DNA of 64,000 bases, from assembly GCA_024402715.1 (NCBI GenBank), contig JAKSTF010000001.1, positions 6,757 to 70,756 of the forward strand, in the 5' to 3' direction. The notes below the pieces were generated by a model, which saw only the letters and a program-made list of their open reading frames with translations, made no database searches and was not told the DNA's origin. Origin of the DNA: Alphaproteobacteria bacterium. GTDB taxonomy: Bacteria; Pseudomonadota; Alphaproteobacteria; Rs-D84. Of the stretch, positions 13,792 to 51,872 are shown one piece after another; the stretch's first letter is position 1; each line of letters begins with the position of its first letter. Made by a program: the position numbers and the translations under genes.

Positions 13792-15000
13792 TTACCTTTC
13801 GTGATTTTGTTTTGCCGTTATATCAGCATGACAATCATGACACAACATTAAACAATTATCTATGGTTGTTTCACCGCCATCTGAAAAAGCGACTTTATGA
13901 TGTGCCTCTAATTCTTTGATATCAAATTCACGTCCACACCTGCCCCCACATTTTTTGTTTTGGTTTTGATATGCCGCACGTTGTTGTTTTTCTGTAAACA
14001 CACGATGCCAAATTAGTGTTCTGTCACCAGATAAAACGTATTCATAGAATCCTGCTTTTTTTAAGCCATCAGGATCAATATCATACAATTCAAATAACCT
14101 TAACAATTCTTTTTCCAGTGCATCTGTATCGTAATTTTTATTATGATATTTATTATACAAAATTCCCCACGATAGACCTCGCATTTCTTTTCTGTACACT
14201 GGGAACGTTTGTTTTACCCATGATATAACCGATTTATAATAATTTATCAATTCATCGGCATTATCATCCGCCCTGTGTTTTGCCATATAATATTTTATTT
14301 CTGGGTATTCGGTTTTATCTGTATCAATTATCCACTGTAATACCAATTCCAACAAAGCCTGTCGATTGGCATCTTCACCATTTATTGATAATAAACTATG
14401 TTTGATATCATTATCATAAAAGGCAAAATTGATAGCCGGATTATTTGTTTTTTTAGAAAAATAACCTTTCGCATCTGTTAACCATACCCCAGTATAATCG
14501 GCATTTAATAATTCCTGTTCCTCCATTATTTTTCCCGCAATATTTATTGTGTGAAACCAATCAAGTTTTTCATCATCCGTACCATCACAAACATATATTT
14601 GCAATTTATAATCATCCAAAATCTGTTTTTGTTTTTCCGGCGATAAATTTTCAAATGTTTGTGTGCGTTTTCCATCAAAATTGATAGCAATCGGATTACC
14701 ATACCCATCATTATTCGTTATAAACTGACACATTGATATCGTGCGTTGTTGGCCATCAATTATTTCAAATGTTCCATCTGGATTTTTTGCCCAATACATA
14801 ACATTCAATGGTAAATTATCATATACAGACCGCATTACCCTGTCCCGATCGGTTGGTTCATAAACAAACGCCCGTTGATAAGCCGGCCGCACATTTAATT
14901 TTCCCCCAAACGCAACAACGCCATTTTCGCCATTATCACAATATCCATTTACCAAATCACGCAAAGTTAAATTATTTAACAAAGTTGCCTTCATAACCAT
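13792..15000 (-). CDS. DUF262 (GmrS/ParB-like) plus C-terminal HNH endonuclease
   Basis: PAYQRAFVY, EIIDGQQRT, FHTIN motifs; C-terminal CxxxC..EAHH..GGET..NCLMLCHDCH; RBS AAGGA before ATG 15000. Confidence 0.88.
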   Translation of the reverse strand: MVMKATLLNNLTLRDLVNGYCDNGENGVVAFGGKLNVRPAYQRAFVYEPTDRDRVMRSVYDNLPLNVMYWAKNPDGTFEIIDGQQRTISMCQFITNNDGYGNPIAINFDGKRTQTFENLSPEKQKQILDDYKLQIYVCDGTDDEKLDWFHTINIAGKIMEEQELLNADYTGVWLTDAKGYFSKKTNNPAINFAFYDNDIKHSLLSINGEDANRQALLELVLQWIIDTDKTEYPEIKYYMAKHRADDNADELINYYKSVISWVKQTFPVYRKEMRGLSWGILYNKYHNKNYDTDALEKELLRLFELYDIDPDGLKKAGFYEYVLSGDRTLIWHRVFTEKQQRAAYQNQNKKCGGRCGREFDIKELEAHHKVAFSDGGETTIDNCLMLCHDCHADITAKQNHER

Positions 15001-15020
15001 TTTTGTTTCCTTTTTATTTA

Positions 15021-15086
15021 TATCACTGTACACAGTGATAGCCATTTCACTGTATTTAATCTTTATTATCACTGTGGGGTTCACTG
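15021..15086. repeat. Cluster of five TCACTG hexamers including a perfect 9-bp inverted repeat
   Basis: TCACTG at 15023, 15047, 15069 and 15081; CAGTGA at 15033; TATCACTGT-ac-ACAGTGATA at 15021-15040. Confidence 0.85.
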
Positions 15087-16045
15087 CTAGAATTCTTTTT
15101 TCTACGAATTAGAATTCTATTATACGGGCAACTACTAATACCATTTACCGTAATAGATAAATCTGTTCTGCCACGATAATTTTTTATTATTCCTAATTCT
15201 TTAGCTGTATCTCCTGTTCCCATGCCAACAATTTCAAATTGTTCTGGATTATGCCTATCCAAAAATGTAATTGGCACCCCCATAACACCATAATAATCCA
15301 TTGGTACATCAGATGTTTTTGAAACATTTATTGCATCATAATTATCATATTTTGGATATTGATCTTCAAAACCATAATACTTTTTACCGGTCTCTATAAA
15401 TTCACTTCTCTTTGTTGTTGATAAATTTGTAAACCATCGTGTCAAACCATTAACCTTTTTTGTGATTTCATTATTATAAATAAAATTACATGGGGAATTA
15501 TACCCAAGCCAAATTTTATTATTTTTTATAAGTGGAAAAACTTCTTTATACGCAATAGCATTTTTATTACCAATAATTAAAAAATCCTTATCATATTCAA
15601 TTAACTGTGCAACATATTCACGAAATAATGAAAATGGCGGATTTGTTATTACAATATCGGCACTTTTTAATAATTCAATACATTCGGGGCTGCGAAAATC
15701 ACCGTTGCCACGCAATGGTTGTTCCATGATATCTTCACTGCATATAATTCCATCACCGGTATTGTCTTTGTCCAAAACATACATTGTTGATTTACCATCA
15801 CGCTCATAATGTGTGGCAATTACACGTTTTATACCAAACGATTCAAAATTATCGGCAAAATATTTTATAAAATTTGACTTTGGTGTCCCCATACCAATAC
15901 CAAAATGATCATCACAGTTGCAATAAATAACCTTACCTCGAAAATATTTTGCATAGTGATTTAATTCTTTTTCTATTTCATCATAACACGTGTAGAATTC
16001 ATCATCTTTCGCTTCTTTTGCGTGAAGCATAGTATGCTTTGCCAT
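15056..16045 (-). CDS. Adenine-specific DNA methyltransferase, EcoRI-methylase family
   Basis: AKDDEFYT, KVIYCNCDD, GDFRSPEC, DIVITNPPFSLFREY, MGVPITFLD. Confidence 0.92.
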   Translation of the reverse strand: MAKHTMLHAKEAKDDEFYTCYDEIEKELNHYAKYFRGKVIYCNCDDHFGIGMGTPKSNFIKYFADNFESFGIKRVIATHYERDGKSTMYVLDKDNTGDGIICSEDIMEQPLRGNGDFRSPECIELLKSADIVITNPPFSLFREYVAQLIEYDKDFLIIGNKNAIAYKEVFPLIKNNKIWLGYNSPCNFIYNNEITKKVNGLTRWFTNLSTTKRSEFIETGKKYYGFEDQYPKYDNYDAINVSKTSDVPMDYYGVMGVPITFLDRHNPEQFEIVGMGTGDTAKELGIIKNYRGRTDLSITVNGISSCPYNRILIRRKKNSSSEPHSDNKD

Positions 16046-16064: not shown

Positions 16065-16292
16065 AAAAAAAATTAACCGCCAATCAGGAATGGCGGTCGG
16101 GGTGTTAGAAAAATCAGTTTATCAATGACCCCATTGGTCTTTGGGTAAACCCTGAACATACACCAACGGCACCCCGACCATATAATCGGGATTATAACGG
16201 TGCGAAAATACACCGAATTTTCGGATTACGATGCTTTCGCACCAGATAAACAGGACTTTTCTAAGGTCCCGAACCCAATTCCCATTGGATTC
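16065..16292 (-). ncRNA. Structured 5' leader RNA, copy 1 (C4/CI-like antisense attenuator candidate) ending in an intrinsic terminator
   Basis: Homologous to 51284-51502 with covarying stems; GGGA-tetraloop hairpin at the 5' end; terminator ACCGCCA..TGGCGGT followed by a U-tract just before the MTase RBS. Confidence 0.8.
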
Positions 16293-16299
16293 AATGTTT

Positions 16300-16308
16300 A
16301 GTATACCA
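16300..16308 (-). promoter_or_regulatory. Extended -10 promoter element (TGGTATACT) for leader copy 1
   Basis: TGnTATACT lies 7 nt upstream of the conserved GAATCC start; same spacing as in copy 2. Confidence 0.5.
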
Positions 16309-16329
16309 TAAAAATGCAGATTATAAATC

Positions 16330-34178: not shown

Positions 34179-34491
34179 AAAGATTTATCAACGTACAGCG
34201 CGGCCCCAAACCATTGCAGGTGCCATGGGTGGTTTAATGCGAATGTTCGGTATCCGGGCATCCGATTCTGATTTGGTAAACCGGTGGGCAGATATTATGG
34301 GACCTGATATTGCCCAAACCGCTGTACCGGTTGCAATAAAAAAAATGCGCGATGGGCGTTTTTCCATAGTATTACGTCCAACAAATCCCGCATTCACATT
34401 GGCATTATCTTATCGCGTTGGTGAAATAACTGACAAAATTAATAAATATTTTGGGCGTGATGCGGTTGGAAAAATTAGTTTTAGAAAATAA
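34159..34491 (+). CDS. DciA/DUF721-family protein
   Basis: LVNRWADIMGPDIA..P..KINKYFGRDAV pattern. Confidence 0.75.
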   Translation: MSNQTVKKIYQRTARPQTIAGAMGGLMRMFGIRASDSDLVNRWADIMGPDIAQTAVPVAIKKMRDGRFSIVLRPTNPAFTLALSYRVGEITDKINKYFGRDAVGKISFRK

Positions 34492-34501
34492 TTTTATATA
34501 T

Positions 34502-34529
34502 AAAAACACCGGCAAACGCCGGTATTTTT
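34502..34529. terminator. Bidirectional terminator, near-identical to the 40039 and 48494 elements
   Basis: AAAAACACCGGC-AAAC-GCCGGTATTTTT. Confidence 0.8.
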
Positions 34530-34534
34530 ATAAT

Positions 34535-40024: not shown

Positions 40025-40038
40025 CATTATTTTCATAA

Positions 40039-40066
40039 AAAAATACCGGCAAATGCCGGTATTTTT
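40039..40066. terminator. Terminator, 28 bp identical to 48494-48521
   Basis: AAAAATACCGGC-AAAT-GCCGGTATTTTT. Confidence 0.85.
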
Positions 40067-41646
40067 TATTCTTTACGTATTGGATATTTTCCATCAATTA
40101 GGTTTTGACGAACCACATGATGTTTTATCTTTTGTGTACTGGTCATTGGCAATTCTTCGGTTGTCATTGCAAAATGGGTTACCCATTTATATGATGCAAC
40201 ACGTTTATTTGCCGCTGCAACCGCTGCAGATAATTTTTCAATTGTCATATCTTCATCAACACTGAAAACACCATACGTAACGGTTTTATCTTTGACAACA
40301 TGTTCAAATACCGCGACATTTTTTACCCCCGGGATTGTGATAAACAGACCCTCCAATTCATCTGGGTATACGTTTTTACCAGAATCCAAAACAATAACCT
40401 GTTTTTTACGTCCAGCAAAATGCAATTCGCCGTTTTTATCCATACGAACCATATCGCCTGTATTGAAAAAACCACGTTCATCAAACGCATTTTCATTTGC
40501 ACCCGGGTTATTTAAATATCCCCCAAAAACCTGGTGACCACGTAACCACAGAACACCGACACCTTCTTCATTTTTATCACGAATTTCACATTCGTTGTTC
40601 AGCGTTGGTGCACCAAATGCGAATGGAAAACGTTTTTTTACAGGTTTTGATATACAAATTGGTCCCACAGTCTCTGTTAAACCATATCCCTGAATAAAAC
40701 GCATTCCCAAACGTTCATAAAACGTTTCAACCTCTGGCTTGGTGGCGGCACCACCGGCAATCATAACCGTTACACGTCCACCAAAGATTGCACGGACTGG
40801 ATCTTGAACTTTTTTAACCAAGAAGCCCAAACCAATTTTGTTCAACGTGTCGCCATATTTCAATACCAAAGATGCCAACCACCATTTATGCTGTGATTTA
40901 ATTTGATCGATAATCCGATTACGGATAACTTCGAACAAACGTGGAACCGCCGGTATAATCTGTGGACGATATTTTACAAAATCGGCCATTATTTCTTTTG
41001 GGTTAACGGTTGGTTGTAATAACATACCGGCCCCAAAATGCAATGTTGCCAATATCTCTACGGCAAAGCCGAATATATGATACATCGGCAAAAATCCATA
41101 CATGATATCACCGGCATGAATATAAGAATTCATTTCTTCTAACGAATTTGAACATTCAATCAAATTAAAGTGTGTTAATGGCACAACCTTTGGCTTGCCA
41201 GTGGAACCAGATGTAAATGACAGCGTTGCAACATCCAATGTTTCCAATGGGGCAGCAGACAATTCTGGATTAACATCACCGTCTGTTGACGTAATATCAA
41301 AAAACGTAAATTTATCCGTTTTGTAAAAAAACGATTTTTCTGCACATATAGTATGACAATCTGTGGTTGATGTCATATTGTCGTATTCAAACGGTGTTAA
41401 GTTTGTATCCAACAATAATACAGTTCCACCCAAATACCATATTGCAAATAATGTTACAGGGAATTGTGGAATATTATGTGATAAAACACCAACAATATCA
41501 CCACGTTTTACCCCCGCGGCATGCAACGATGCTGCACGGCGTTTTACTAAATTTAAAAATTGCGAAAAAGTAATCTCTTCACGAACCAGAAACAAATTAT
41601 CTGGCCATGTTGCAACTGCTTTCTCCAATAATTGATACATATTCAT
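40066..41646 (-). CDS. AMP-dependent acyl-CoA/acyl-ACP synthetase (long-chain fatty acid ligase-like)
   Basis: FTSGSTGKPK, QGYGLTET, FNTGD, GRKK..SGKNVYPDELE, TSTQKI; start moved to 41646. Confidence 0.9.
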   Translation of the reverse strand: MNMYQLLEKAVATWPDNLFLVREEITFSQFLNLVKRRAASLHAAGVKRGDIVGVLSHNIPQFPVTLFAIWYLGGTVLLLDTNLTPFEYDNMTSTTDCHTICAEKSFFYKTDKFTFFDITSTDGDVNPELSAAPLETLDVATLSFTSGSTGKPKVVPLTHFNLIECSNSLEEMNSYIHAGDIMYGFLPMYHIFGFAVEILATLHFGAGMLLQPTVNPKEIMADFVKYRPQIIPAVPRLFEVIRNRIIDQIKSQHKWWLASLVLKYGDTLNKIGLGFLVKKVQDPVRAIFGGRVTVMIAGGAATKPEVETFYERLGMRFIQGYGLTETVGPICISKPVKKRFPFAFGAPTLNNECEIRDKNEEGVGVLWLRGHQVFGGYLNNPGANENAFDERGFFNTGDMVRMDKNGELHFAGRKKQVIVLDSGKNVYPDELEGLFITIPGVKNVAVFEHVVKDKTVTYGVFSVDEDMTIEKLSAAVAAANKRVASYKWVTHFAMTTEELPMTSTQKIKHHVVRQNLIDGKYPIRKE

Positions 41647-46896: not shown

Positions 46897-48495
46897 ATGG
46901 ATTTTTCAATGTATATAAACAGATTTTTTGGTATTTGCATGGCTTTTGGATTGGTCGCATGCGGTGGACATAATAAAAATTGGACCGATCAATACGGAAA
47001 GTATGATCCTAACACGGCGACAGAGCCCAATGCCGCATTGTACGGAACGTATACGGCCGAAAAAAACTCAAATAAAACGCATAAAATAGCGGCAATTTTA
47101 CCATTAAGTGGCAAAAATGCATCCGTAGGTAAAATAATACGTACCTCTATAGAAACTGCAGCACTACAAAGTGCCCCAAATAATCTGAATATCAAATTTT
47201 ATGACAGCACATCTGATGAATCAATGCAAACAGCCATAATGGATAAACCAGAAATAATAATTGGACCGGTTTTTGCCGGTAATGTCCGTTTATTGCATGA
47301 AATTAAATTGCCAGATACACCGGTATTGTCGTTTACATCAGATGCAACCGCCATTGGTGATGGCGTTATGACAATGGCATTAATGCCCACCAACAGTATT
47401 GAAGCAATTGTCAAAGAAATGCAAACAGATAAAATAGATAACTTTATTGTTTTGGCACCAGATACAGAATCCGGCCGGTTGATGGCGGGTGCCGCAAAAA
47501 AATTAGCTGCGGATAAAAATATGGTTTTATCTGGTATATTTTATTACAAAGAAAATAATTCAGAATCTATTAAAAATGTAACATTTAATGCAACTATAAA
47601 TGAAGCACGCACGGCGGCCAATACACGCGCATTGGAAATATTATCTGATATATTAACCAAGGAAGATTTAAGTGTAGCTGAAAAGTTATCTTTAACAGAC
47701 CAATTGGACAAACTGTCAAAATCTGACACCCTTGGGAAATTACCATTCAATGCCATTTTGTTTTTAGGTAATGCATCCGACACAAAATCACTGGCATCAT
47801 TTTTACGATATTATGGAATCAACATGCATGACGCAAAATTTTATGGCACTGCAATGTGGGATGGAACGGATATAGCCAATGATATAACAATGTCTGGTGC
47901 AAAATATGCAGCATTACCGGAAATATCAACATGGTTTACCGAACAATATCAATTAATATCTGGAGACACACCAAATCACCTGTCGGCATTTGGTTATGAT
48001 GCAACAAATATGGCGATTGGTATGTTGTATTCTAAAAAAAATAACGCAGAATATTTGTTAAACCCCAGTGGGTATTTAACATCTGCCGGATTGGTACGTT
48101 TGCGTCCAAACGGTGACAGCGAACGTGGGTTACGAATAATGGAATTAAATGGTACAGGAACACCGCACGTAGTCCGTAGTGCTGCAAAAAATTTCATAAA
48201 ACCAATGTATACCATTGATTCACGTCATATAACCCCAGCACTTTCTATGCCATTGCAAACAAATGGTATTAATCCGATGGATTATATCCGCATTCCAGAC
48301 CGTTTTAAGGCACTCTATAAATCAAAAACATTTGGAACCAATATGAAGTCGGGTGTTATTCAACCACCAATCCAAGAAAACATAGTAATATTACCTGAAG
48401 ATGACAGTGACACAATCATGTCACCAGATTTTCAACCAGTATCCACCGAAAAGATTAATAAAACCTATATTGATTCTGTTGAAATTTCTGAATAA
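46897..48495 (+). CDS. LpoA/LppC-like penicillin-binding protein activator lipoprotein
   Basis: Lipobox LVAC; IAAILPLSG, IIGPVF, AFGYDA; divergent from rsmI as in the conserved rsmI/lpoA arrangement. Confidence 0.75.
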   Translation: MDFSMYINRFFGICMAFGLVACGGHNKNWTDQYGKYDPNTATEPNAALYGTYTAEKNSNKTHKIAAILPLSGKNASVGKIIRTSIETAALQSAPNNLNIKFYDSTSDESMQTAIMDKPEIIIGPVFAGNVRLLHEIKLPDTPVLSFTSDATAIGDGVMTMALMPTNSIEAIVKEMQTDKIDNFIVLAPDTESGRLMAGAAKKLAADKNMVLSGIFYYKENNSESIKNVTFNATINEARTAANTRALEILSDILTKEDLSVAEKLSLTDQLDKLSKSDTLGKLPFNAILFLGNASDTKSLASFLRYYGINMHDAKFYGTAMWDGTDIANDITMSGAKYAALPEISTWFTEQYQLISGDTPNHLSAFGYDATNMAIGMLYSKKNNAEYLLNPSGYLTSAGLVRLRPNGDSERGLRIMELNGTGTPHVVRSAAKNFIKPMYTIDSRHITPALSMPLQTNGINPMDYIRIPDRFKALYKSKTFGTNMKSGVIQPPIQENIVILPEDDSDTIMSPDFQPVSTEKINKTYIDSVEISE

Positions 48496-48521
48496 AAATA
48501 CCGGCAAATGCCGGTATTTTT
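48494..48521. terminator. Bidirectional terminator, identical to 40039-40066
   Basis: AAAAATACCGGC-AAAT-GCCGGTATTTTT. Confidence 0.85.
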
Positions 48522-48533
48522 ATTAAAAACATT

Positions 48534-49202: not shown

Positions 49203-50267
49203 TTAACTATTTACCATATTTTTTATCATAAATTCTAATCCACAACCATTTACAAAATAATTATTGGGATATCTTTTCAAATTTTGTAATATATGCGAAT
49301 ATTGATGTTCGTGTTTGTTTTTAGTATTTCCTGTTGTAATATCAGAATCCATATAATCAGATATATCAATAGTATTAAATTCATTATCAATATTTGATAT
49401 ATTGTTATCTGCTGCTAATGCTTTAATAAAATTCCCCTGTAAGCACGAAACATAGTGTATATTTGGCTGTTCTTCTGTTTGATTTATAAAATTTATAATC
49501 TCATTTATCGCTTCATTTTGACTGCCCCCATCACCATTTGTCATTTTATGTTCAATAATAAAAAATTCATTGTTACATTTTAACAGTAAATCTGGATATT
49601 TATTATCACGAGCTGTGGCAAAAATAAATTTAATATTTTTATATTTTATAAAAGATTTAAATAATTGCTTACCATCCTTATCAGGCAAAATATAACACCT
49701 GGGAGCTGATAATAAATTTTCAAGCGTTTCTGTTTTTTTAAATCCCAATGAGGATATAACTGTTTCAACTTTTTGAATACCAGTTTTTCCATTCCGCCTT
49801 GCCGACGCTACATCCGACATAACCTGTAATATTTGGTCAGAATATCCATAAGATAAATACATATCGTGTCTATTTGTTAAATACATATCTAGTATCTGTG
49901 TTAACAAATCTATCTTGTCATCAAGCGTCATTTGTTTTTGTTCAGTTTGATATGCCGAATACGAGTATTTTAATACCTGAAAATATACGCAGAATGCTGA
50001 ATAATTTATCAATTTAACATTATCAAGTATTTCAATAATTTCTAATATTATTTTTCGTATTGAATTATCGTGTTTATAATCATTTTGAGAGCATAATACT
50101 TTATATGCGGTTATCAATTCAACCAGTCTATTATTGGCAATTTGTAATTCTTTCGGTTGCAATTCGCTGTTTTTTGAAACGACCTCTACACCCGCAGGAT
50201 TAGAAAAATCTATAATTTTATCAGCATTATATAAACTATACTTAAAATATTCTATATTAGGTCGCAT
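49203..50267 (-). CDS. Putative Type II restriction endonuclease (PD-(D/E)xK)
   Basis: YPDLLLK..IIEHK catalytic-like motif; overlaps the upstream MTase by 16 bp; very AT-rich. Confidence 0.7.
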   Translation of the reverse strand: MRPNIEYFKYSLYNADKIIDFSNPAGVEVVSKNSELQPKELQIANNRLVELITAYKVLCSQNDYKHDNSIRKIILEIIEILDNVKLINYSAFCVYFQVLKYSYSAYQTEQKQMTLDDKIDLLTQILDMYLTNRHDMYLSYGYSDQILQVMSDVASARRNGKTGIQKVETVISSLGFKKTETLENLLSAPRCYILPDKDGKQLFKSFIKYKNIKFIFATARDNKYPDLLLKCNNEFFIIEHKMTNGDGGSQNEAINEIINFINQTEEQPNIHYVSCLQGNFIKALAADNNISNIDNEFNTIDISDYMDSDITTGNTKNKHEHQYSHILQNLKRYPNNYFVNGCGLEFMIKNMVNS

Positions 50268-51268: not shown

Positions 51269-51283
51269 GACTAAAATCTTTGT

Positions 51284-51502
51284 AAAAAAACCGCCCCAAT
51301 AGAGAGCGGTCGGGTATCTTCAAGGTCATATAGCGAATGACTTCCGTTGCCTTCGGACAAAATCCTATTGTATAACAACAGATAACCCGACCATTAGTCA
51401 GGCATTAACGATGCGAATGCATCATTTACGAAATAGATTACGATGCAATTCGCACCGCGCTATATGGGTCTTGAAAACCCGAAACCAATTCCCATTGGAT
51501 TC
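51284..51502 (-). ncRNA. Structured 5' leader RNA, copy 2 (C4/CI-like antisense attenuator candidate) ending in an intrinsic terminator
   Basis: Homologous to 16065-16292; same stems built from different sequence; terminator CCGCTC..GGGCGG followed by U7, 15 nt before the MTase ATG. Confidence 0.8.
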
Positions 51503-51509
51503 AGTAATT

Positions 51510-51537
51510 ATTTTACATCAAACAGTTATAAAATCAA
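51510..51537 (-). promoter_or_regulatory. Promoter for leader copy 2
   Basis: TTGATT-16 bp-TAAAAT, 7 nt before the conserved GAATCC. Confidence 0.5.
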
Positions 51538-51679: not shown

Positions 51680-51765
51680 TGGTGGGAGTGGTAGGAGTCG
51701 AACCTACTCAAGCATAGCTAACAGATTTACAGTCTGCCCCGGCTCTCCGACTCCGGCGCACGCCC
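51680..51765 (-). tRNA. tRNA-Tyr (GTA)
   Basis: GCAGA-CTGTAAA-TCTGT anticodon arm, long variable arm, GGTTCGACTCC T-arm, encoded ACCA; one C-U mismatch in the acceptor stem. Confidence 0.95.
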
Positions 51766-51797
51766 AATCTTCCAGAATTTGAATTCAAACAAATTCT

Positions 51798-51872
51798 TGG
51801 TGCGGGCAGCGGGAATCGAACCCGCATTTCAAGCTTGGAAGGCTTGCATACTAGCCTTTGTACTATGCCCGC
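51798..51872 (-). tRNA. tRNA-Gly (TCC)
   Basis: GCGGGCA/TGCCCGC acceptor stem, CTTCCAA anticodon loop, GGTTCGATTCC T-arm, encoded CCA. Confidence 0.96.

Follow-up and report, generated by a model that had tools for sequence, protein, structure and literature searches.

A covarying family of 5′ leader RNAs, probably two-state attenuators, upstream of accessory operons in Alphaproteobacteria

The main finding of this study is a family of cis-acting 5′ leader RNAs in Alphaproteobacteria that probably work as two-state attenuators. The evidence that carries this reading is that one segment of the RNA, c (consensus GGUCGGGGAG), is complementary both to an upstream segment b and to a downstream segment d (CUCCCCGACC), that d reaches into the 5′ arm of a terminator, and that the two competing helices, b:c and c:d, covary across the family. 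The kind of system is known, although the leader family itself appears to be undescribed, as judged from the lack of an Rfam match and of a description in the literature.

Results

The leader from which this work starts (copy 2) is a non-coding RNA of about 225 nt at 51283-51507 on the minus strand of the window, by which we mean the whole stretch of 64,000 nucleotides that was analysed. It runs from a sigma-70-like promoter to an intrinsic terminator, which ends 14-20 nt before the gene for an N6 DNA methyltransferase (Table 1). The first-pass annotation had described four short segments in the order a, b, c and d, with d overlapping the 5′ arm of the terminator, and this is what the minus strand holds: UCGGG (a) at 51478-51482, CCUGA (b) at 51398-51402, GGUCGGG (c) at 51386-51392 and CCCGACC (d) at 51308-51314, the last running into a hairpin (51311->51289) that is followed by a T-run. 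The same arrangement, terminator included, is present as described in a second copy in the window (copy 1; Table 1). The folds of both copies stand out from those of shuffled sequences (z = -6.7 for copy 2 and -6.9 for copy 1), with 0 of 200 shuffles equally good in either case. The 354-aa ORF that follows the methyltransferase gene of copy 2 is presumed to encode its partner nuclease. On its upstream side, the copy-2 promoter is adjoined by genes for tRNA-Tyr(GTA) and tRNA-Gly(TCC) (minus strand, 51680-51872), and the restriction-modification cassette of copy 2 may occupy a tRNA-linked insertion spot.

Table 1. Positions in the window of the two leader copies, their parts and the genes that follow them
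Feature	Position	Strand	Details
Sigma-70-like promoter of copy 2	51510..51537	-	-35 TTGATT (51532-51537), 16-nt spacer, -10 TAAAAT (51510-51515)
Whole leader RNA, copy 2	51283..51507	-	Covariance-model match of 187.2 bits, full model covered
P1 hairpin, GAAUCCAAU-GGGA-AUUGGUUUC, GNRA-type loop	51481..51503	-	Both-side changes at 10/10 pairs in the family
Segment a (UCGGG, 51478-51482) and local hairpin a:a′ (GGGU/ACCC)	51466..51482	-	Covariation
Loop of a:a′, UUUUCAAG, = P2b 5′ strand	51470-51477	-	
P2a 5′ strand, CAUAUAGCG	51458..51466	-	Heavy covariation at 7/7 P2a pairs
P3 arm, GGUGCGAA...UUCGCAUC, with conserved GCAUCGUAAUC	51409..51457	-	Fold and family alignment
P4 hairpin (b:c)	51383..51403	-	b = GCCUGACU (51396-51403); c = GGUCGGGU(UA) (51383-51392)
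P5 arm, CUGUUG...CAACGG, with inner hairpin	51344..51381	-	Both-side changes at 8/8 pairs
3′ strands of the long-range helices	51317..51335	-	P2a 51327-51335; P2b 51317-51324
Segment d, (A)UACCCGACC	51308..51317	-	Partner is c (8 bp in copy 2; putative antiterminator) or, via GACC, the terminator 3′ arm
Intrinsic-terminator-like hairpin, GACCGCUCU...GGGGCGGUU, and U-run	51283..51311	-	Hairpin 51311->51289, T-run after it
N6 DNA methyltransferase, downstream gene 1, 338 aa	50252..51268	-	Pfam N6_Mtase and Eco57I
Downstream gene 2, 354-aa ORF	49203..50267	-	No Pfam family
Leader RNA, copy 1	16069..16297	-	Covariance-model match of 226.4 bits; promoter-like site 16300-16327; terminator 16098->16075
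Operon after copy 1	13792..16045	-	EcoRI-family methylase (15056-16045) and GmrSD_N/HNH nuclease (13792-15084)

The source assembly (1.0 Mb in 63 contigs, 96.6% complete) contains six full-length leader copies with a mutual identity of 65-84%, and all six head restriction-modification or nuclease-type operons. These comprise two pairs of EcoRI_methylase and GmrSD_N/HNH genes, an N6_Mtase pair, HsdM with HsdS, an Eco57I-type methylase with a ResIII helicase, and a GIY-YIG protein with two unknown ORFs; in five of the six, the first gene encodes a DNA methyltransferase. The most similar leaders are those of the EcoRI-methylase operons, leader and downstream gene travelling together. A BLAST match on another contig of the source genome was considered as a further copy and rejected as a chance match lying inside a coding region. 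The combination of an EcoRI-family methylase with a GmrSD_N (DUF262)/HNH nuclease forms two paralogous operons, one in the window (13792-16045) and one on another contig of the source genome, and an EcoRI-methylase and DUF262 pairing also follows the leader in a distant genome.

A covariance model built from the six source-genome copies (R1) finds the leader in 137 of 151 sampled genomes of the order, with more than 1000 matches, a count (150 listed and 873 more) that is a lower bound because 14 candidates were scored per genome. Five genomes searched in full hold 5 to 25 copies each, the highest number occurring in a genome of 0.8 Mb. At class level, the model matches 17 of 151 sampled genomes, one of them weakly, and these include the source genome and one of the same genus, which leaves 15 of 149 others; at phylum level it matches 6 of 151, all from the same class. 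The hosts are Candidatus Enterousia and uncultured gut and rumen Alphaproteobacteria, and the leader also occurs in larger Alphaproteobacteria, some of which have complete single-contig genomes. Among IMG/VR predicted viral contigs with the c...d pattern, five of six also match the model; on one of these IMG/VR contigs, the leader precedes a gene for an 82-aa protein and two lipoprotein genes.

Comparison with known RNAs returned little. At the gathering score, Rfam finds no family in the whole window besides two tRNAs; at E values up to 10, the two window copies give only weak and inconsistent matches, and at E values up to 0.01, ten divergent loci give none. The T-box model likewise has no Rfam match in the window, in both copies or in the ten divergent loci. 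Full-text literature searches on structured RNAs of restriction-modification systems, orphan riboswitches, Enterousia and alphaproteobacterial noncoding RNA did not turn up such an RNA. The portions of a report on Enterousia available to us assign this genus, whose genomes they give as smaller than about 1 Mb, to the order Rs-D84, and make no mention of restriction, noncoding or repeat (PMC12306168).

Conservation of the fold is extensive. In an alignment of 95 distinct family sequences to the model (A5), 96.8% of the cells of the full fold are paired compared to 81.5 ± 0.3 in shuffles, and 768 cells carry changes on both sides of a pair compared to 196, although shuffle controls, here and below, overstate significance because the family members are related. 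Such both-side changes are found at 45 of 59 pairs, and sliding the partners by 1-3 columns brings pairing down to 36-51%. A GNRA-capped hairpin (P1), a long-range helix and a four-way junction are strongly backed by covariation. The P1 loop is usually GGGA or GAGA. Segment a forms with a′ a local hairpin, GGGnC/GnCC, which covaries (pair 31-42 is GC in 64 sequences and AU in 8, pair 32-41 CG in 64 and UA in 6), and the loop of this hairpin pairs with a strand 150 nt downstream to form P2b, so that a:a′ and P2b, if they coexist, would make an H-type pseudoknot, as the covariation of both suggests. Nearly every pair of P2a shows three or four Watson-Crick types. The junction carries P3, P4 (b:c) and P5, of which P3 is short or absent and P5 absent in some members (in the case of P3, in some divergent families), and is followed by the terminator. 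The family consensus has a terminator hairpin with a U-run, the stem covaries (pair 376-401, for instance, is GC in 82 sequences and AU in 11), and the U-run is present in most Rs-D84 copies.

Two smaller features of the fold can be added. Conserved UCA and UGA triplets flanking the 3′ strand of P2a (window 51336-51343 and 51324-51326; consensus 169-171 and 182-184) could pair with each other, an arrangement that would mirror that of a:a′ and P2b; both sides are changed in two sequences. In one genome (G395), eight paralogous leaders (L226-L232 and L222) precede paralogous genes for 137-aa XRE-HTH proteins, and these leaders are near-identical, promoter included, and differ only in P2a and P2b, with full compensation, in the manner of a per-copy “barcode”.

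The competition for segment c is where the case for a switch lies. The model behind the alignment includes b:c and the terminator, with the c:d helix left out; in the alignment, b:c is paired in 96.4% of cells (95 members) and c:d, with ten pairs, in 96.5%, the latter compared to 93.0 ± 0.3 in shuffles (0 of 500 as high). Both-side changes in c:d number 26 cells, compared to 6.8 ± 2.1 in shuffles. Much of the core of c:d shows no variation, 2 of its 10 pairs being the same throughout and another 3 changing on just one side, and it is the outer pairs, beyond the G-run/C-run part, that are informative: 127-194 is AU in 50 sequences, GU in 20, UA in 9 and GC in 7, and 126-195 is GC in 79, AU in 6, UA in 1 and CG in 1. 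The same positions of c covary with b (pair 107-126 is CG in 80 and UA in 5; pair 106-127 is UA in 46, UG in 25 and AU in 5), and b, c and d shift jointly at two positions, b/c/d being, for instance, U/A/U in five sequences, G/U/A in one and G/C/G in one. Divergent families extend this pattern: a c of GUGGGGAG goes with a d of CUCCCCGC and a b of CCCCAC, a c of GCGGGGAG with a d of CUCCCCGC, and a c of GGUCGGGAAG with a d of CUUCCCGACC, while in L232, a paralog from a GC-rich genome, the 3′ arm of the terminator is altered along with b, c and d. Duplexes of c with its own d are more stable than those with a d from another member (-18.41 versus -17.23 ± 0.12 kcal/mol, 0 of 20 swaps as low), and this also holds for the 28 divergent members (-16.46 versus -14.47 ± 0.38 kcal/mol, 0 of 200).

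Since c:d covers the GACC of the terminator stem, c:d would be the antiterminator and b:c the anti-antiterminator. The mean energies of the P4 hairpin (-13.0 kcal/mol), the terminator (-12.1 kcal/mol) and the c:d duplex (-18.4 kcal/mol) are near enough to one another to fit a switch. Nested minimum-free-energy folds of both copies give the terminator state only, c:d together with P2a/P2b being a pseudoknot outside the reach of those programs. The terminator is built differently in part of the family. About 8 of the 28 divergent copies miss its 3′ arm and have the U-run straight after d; six variants from three genomes are of this kind, and in variants without the 3′ arm c:d might itself serve as the terminator, so that the logic would be reversed. 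In GC-rich copies, the d:e hairpin (e being the terminator 3′ arm) is present but the U-run is not.

These results retain the core of the two-state attenuator put forward in the first-pass annotation, in which a:d and b:c would leave the terminator intact and c:d with a:b would invade its base. That c is common to b and d, and d to the terminator, stands, as does the strand swap in so far as c:d takes the base of the terminator and b:c is conserved. The pairings assigned to segment a, however, do not hold up equally. The a:b helix has little covariation (93.3% paired, 5 both-side cells compared to 1.9 in shuffles, 9 of 500) and is weak. The a:d helix has modest support (93.3% paired, 11 both-side cells compared to 2.8 in shuffles, 0 of 500), but this comes from one pair, 28-198 (GC 71, AU 7, GU 6), and position 31 of a covaries with a′, for which the support is better, and not with d. 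A further proposal, that the terminator loop of copy 1 pairs with the Shine-Dalgarno region of the methyltransferase gene, starts from a real 8-nt match to AATCAGGA upstream of the start codon, but matches of at least 8 nt recur in just 2 of the 95 members, so that complementarity over this length does not characterise the family; matches of at least 5 nt between the terminator loop and the ribosome-binding region are found in 51 of 95, compared to about 31 expected from shuffles.

Several features assign the RNA to the strand of the downstream gene and to the 5′ end of its transcript. Model scores are 100-238 bits for the gene strand and 18-24 bits for its complement, and G-U pairs are frequent in the family alignment. 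Of 93 distinct upstream regions, 88 contain two promoter-like hexamers that together agree with the consensus at 8 or more of 12 positions, and in 59 of the 93 the -10 box stops 5-6 nt short of the first pair of P1. Of 56 loci, 50 have an ORF of 70 aa or more on the same strand after the element (for two of the other six, the flank was too short), mostly at a distance of 10-25 nt, which leaves no space for a promoter of its own, so that the downstream gene probably depends on read-through. No conserved leader peptide was seen in the aligned copies, the 5′ ATG of some being TTG, CTG or AGA elsewhere.

What lies downstream is diverse. The first ORFs of 50 loci in relatives include six DNA methyltransferases (three EcoRI methylases and three N6_N4 methylases), one Mrr nuclease, two UvrD-type helicases, three glycosyltransferases, one outer-membrane beta-barrel, one ankyrin protein and three weak or marginal matches, with 33 that have no Pfam family. 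By a crude ad hoc rule, 50 of 112 distinct downstream N-termini resemble signal peptides, 13 of these with a lipobox. In larger Alphaproteobacteria, the leader precedes lipoproteins, the EcoRI-methylase and DUF262 pair, a chemoreceptor-like protein and an Fe-S protein, and one larger genome has paralogous XRE regulators behind all eight of its copies. What unites these genes is thus their accessory, surface, defence and mobile-element character and not a role in methylation. The ribosome-binding sites of these genes are unusually rich in G: 34% of 88 post-leader genes have GGGG in the 20 nt before the start, compared to 12% of 392 background ORFs, and 50% have GGG[AG] there, compared to 17%, the background being a crude set of long ORFs of the source genome. 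The complementarity of such sites to the CUCCCC of both d and b is a hint that translation may be controlled as well, as a second layer.

Discussion

We propose that the leader would act as follows. Transcription would start at the predicted promoter directly upstream of P1, and the emerging RNA would fold into P1, the a:a′ hairpin whose loop goes on to form P2b, the long-range P2a, and a junction bearing P3, P4 (b:c) and P5. Segment c could then pair with b or, over up to 10 bp, with d, in which case the GACC of the terminator 5′ arm would be occupied. In the presumed OFF state, P4 would hold, leaving d free to form the terminator with e; in the ON state, d would displace b from c, the terminator would not form and the polymerase would read into the operon. 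A putative effector, whether metabolite, ion or protein, might bind the folded junction, hold P4 and thereby favour termination. In GC-rich relatives without a U-run, d (CUCCCC) could instead mask a G-rich ribosome-binding site.

Other explanations have to be set against this. The element might be a constitutive structured leader with a single fold, acting as a stabiliser, a processing site or a processive antitermination signal, with the alternative pairing no more than a folding intermediate. This would suit its position at the extreme 5′ end of long accessory-operon transcripts, the members without a canonical terminator and the fact that no effector has been assigned. We nevertheless consider it unlikely, since the concerted changes that keep both b:c and c:d pairable would be needless for one fold, the terminator stem covaries and is followed by a U-run in most Rs-D84 copies, and neither EAR nor any other Rfam family matches. 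That each copy has its own promoter and terminator, that b and d resemble anti-Shine-Dalgarno sequences and that post-leader ribosome-binding sites are G-rich would also be expected of stand-alone small RNAs acting in trans, for example through CUCCCC on G-rich ribosome-binding sites, with read-through being incidental. Yet in most copies the next same-strand ORF begins 10-25 nt past the U-run with no space for a promoter, leader and downstream gene travel together, and the hypervariable P2a and P2b argue against a single common target, all of which makes this option rather improbable.

Two further explanations take their cue from where the copies lie and how many there are. A riboswitch sensing SAM or SAH and dedicated to DNA methyltransferase genes, the trigger that the first-pass annotation had floated, would account for the methyltransferase-first operons behind five of the six source-genome copies. 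The annotation had itself seen no SAM riboswitch motifs, which agrees with our searches: no SAM, SAH or SAM/SAH family of Rfam matches either copy, at the gathering score or at E values up to 10. In relatives, moreover, the downstream genes are varied, DNA methyltransferases making up 6 of 50 first ORFs, with about 50 of 112 N-termini secreted or lipoprotein-like by the crude rule and XRE regulators behind all eight copies in one genome. With this theme of accessory, surface, defence and mobile-element functions, not of methylation, and with no matching Rfam family, we think a SAM or SAH trigger very improbable. Hardly more credible is the view of the copies as DNA elements without an RNA function of their own, whether mobile repeats between genes of the MITE, REP or BOX kind or integron sites resembling attC. 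Such elements would fit the many copies, their link with accessory genes and their occurrence on predicted viral contigs, but the copies in the source genome are only 65-84% identical and keep all helices by compensatory changes, G-U pairs are frequent while the opposite strand is scored at about 20 bits, the leaders lie in one orientation and at a set distance from the next start codon, and the unit includes promoter and terminator. A two-state attenuator therefore remains our preferred reading of the family.

This reading has clear parallels among known regulators. Riboswitches and attenuators of the terminator/antiterminator type (SAM-I, T-box, PyrR, trp) likewise consist of a 5′ leader whose sensor domain is conserved and made of several helices, and in which one segment, equivalent to c, is common to a sensor helix and the antiterminator, and another, equivalent to d, to the antiterminator and the intrinsic terminator before the gene. 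T-box leaders, in addition, also occur in many copies per genome before different genes. The family described here differs from these in having no Rfam match, in lying upstream of accessory genes instead of those of one metabolic pathway, and in reaching 25 copies in 0.8 Mb. The HK022 put sites, the Bacillus EAR element and the leaders served by RfaH or LoaP resemble it as promoter-proximal signals that decide on read-through into long accessory operons, but put and EAR lack a competing helix that takes a terminator arm, and EAR, which is in Rfam, does not match. Pneumococcal BOX, Neisseria Correia and REP/BIME elements are similar in being foldable, intergenic, present in many copies in small genomes and able to affect their neighbours. 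These are, however, near-identical mobile DNA with terminal repeats, found in either orientation, whereas the leaders are diverged, covarying, strand-specific and fixed in orientation.

Some limits can be placed on the signal. No GGDEF, RelA_SpoT or DAC domain was found in the source genome (96.6% complete), which argues against c-di-GMP, (p)ppGpp and c-di-AMP as the effector. A protein partner of the RfaH/LoaP type was also considered, and is argued against by the single NusG-family protein of the source genome (one PF02357 match), with no specialised paralog.

Although these reduced-genome bacteria of the gut and rumen are poor in conventional regulators, this elaborate leader heads as many as 25 operons in a genome and is thus probably a main control point of their anti-phage and surface genes. 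A more ambitious idea, which we put forward tentatively and are inclined to doubt, is that these RNAs form a new global class of riboswitches or protein-responsive RNA switches wired specifically to the alphaproteobacterial accessory genome, from restriction-modification and further defence operons to surface lipoproteins, glycosyltransferases and the regulators of mobile elements and phages, with one signal switching defence and surface genes as a block, and with the P2a/P2b “barcodes” selected so that each of the 6-25 copies folds on itself only. Irrespective of this idea, a large and strongly covarying orphan switch with more than 1000 natural variants is a ready subject for the discovery of new effectors, the leader family lets one test how the expression of restriction-modification systems is restrained, and its occurrence in larger Alphaproteobacteria may permit bench tests in a cultured host. 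As a separate observation on the window, near-identical terminator-like palindromes (AAAAATACCGGCAAATGCCGGTATTTTT) are repeated in it at 34490-34531, 40027-40068 and 48482-48523.
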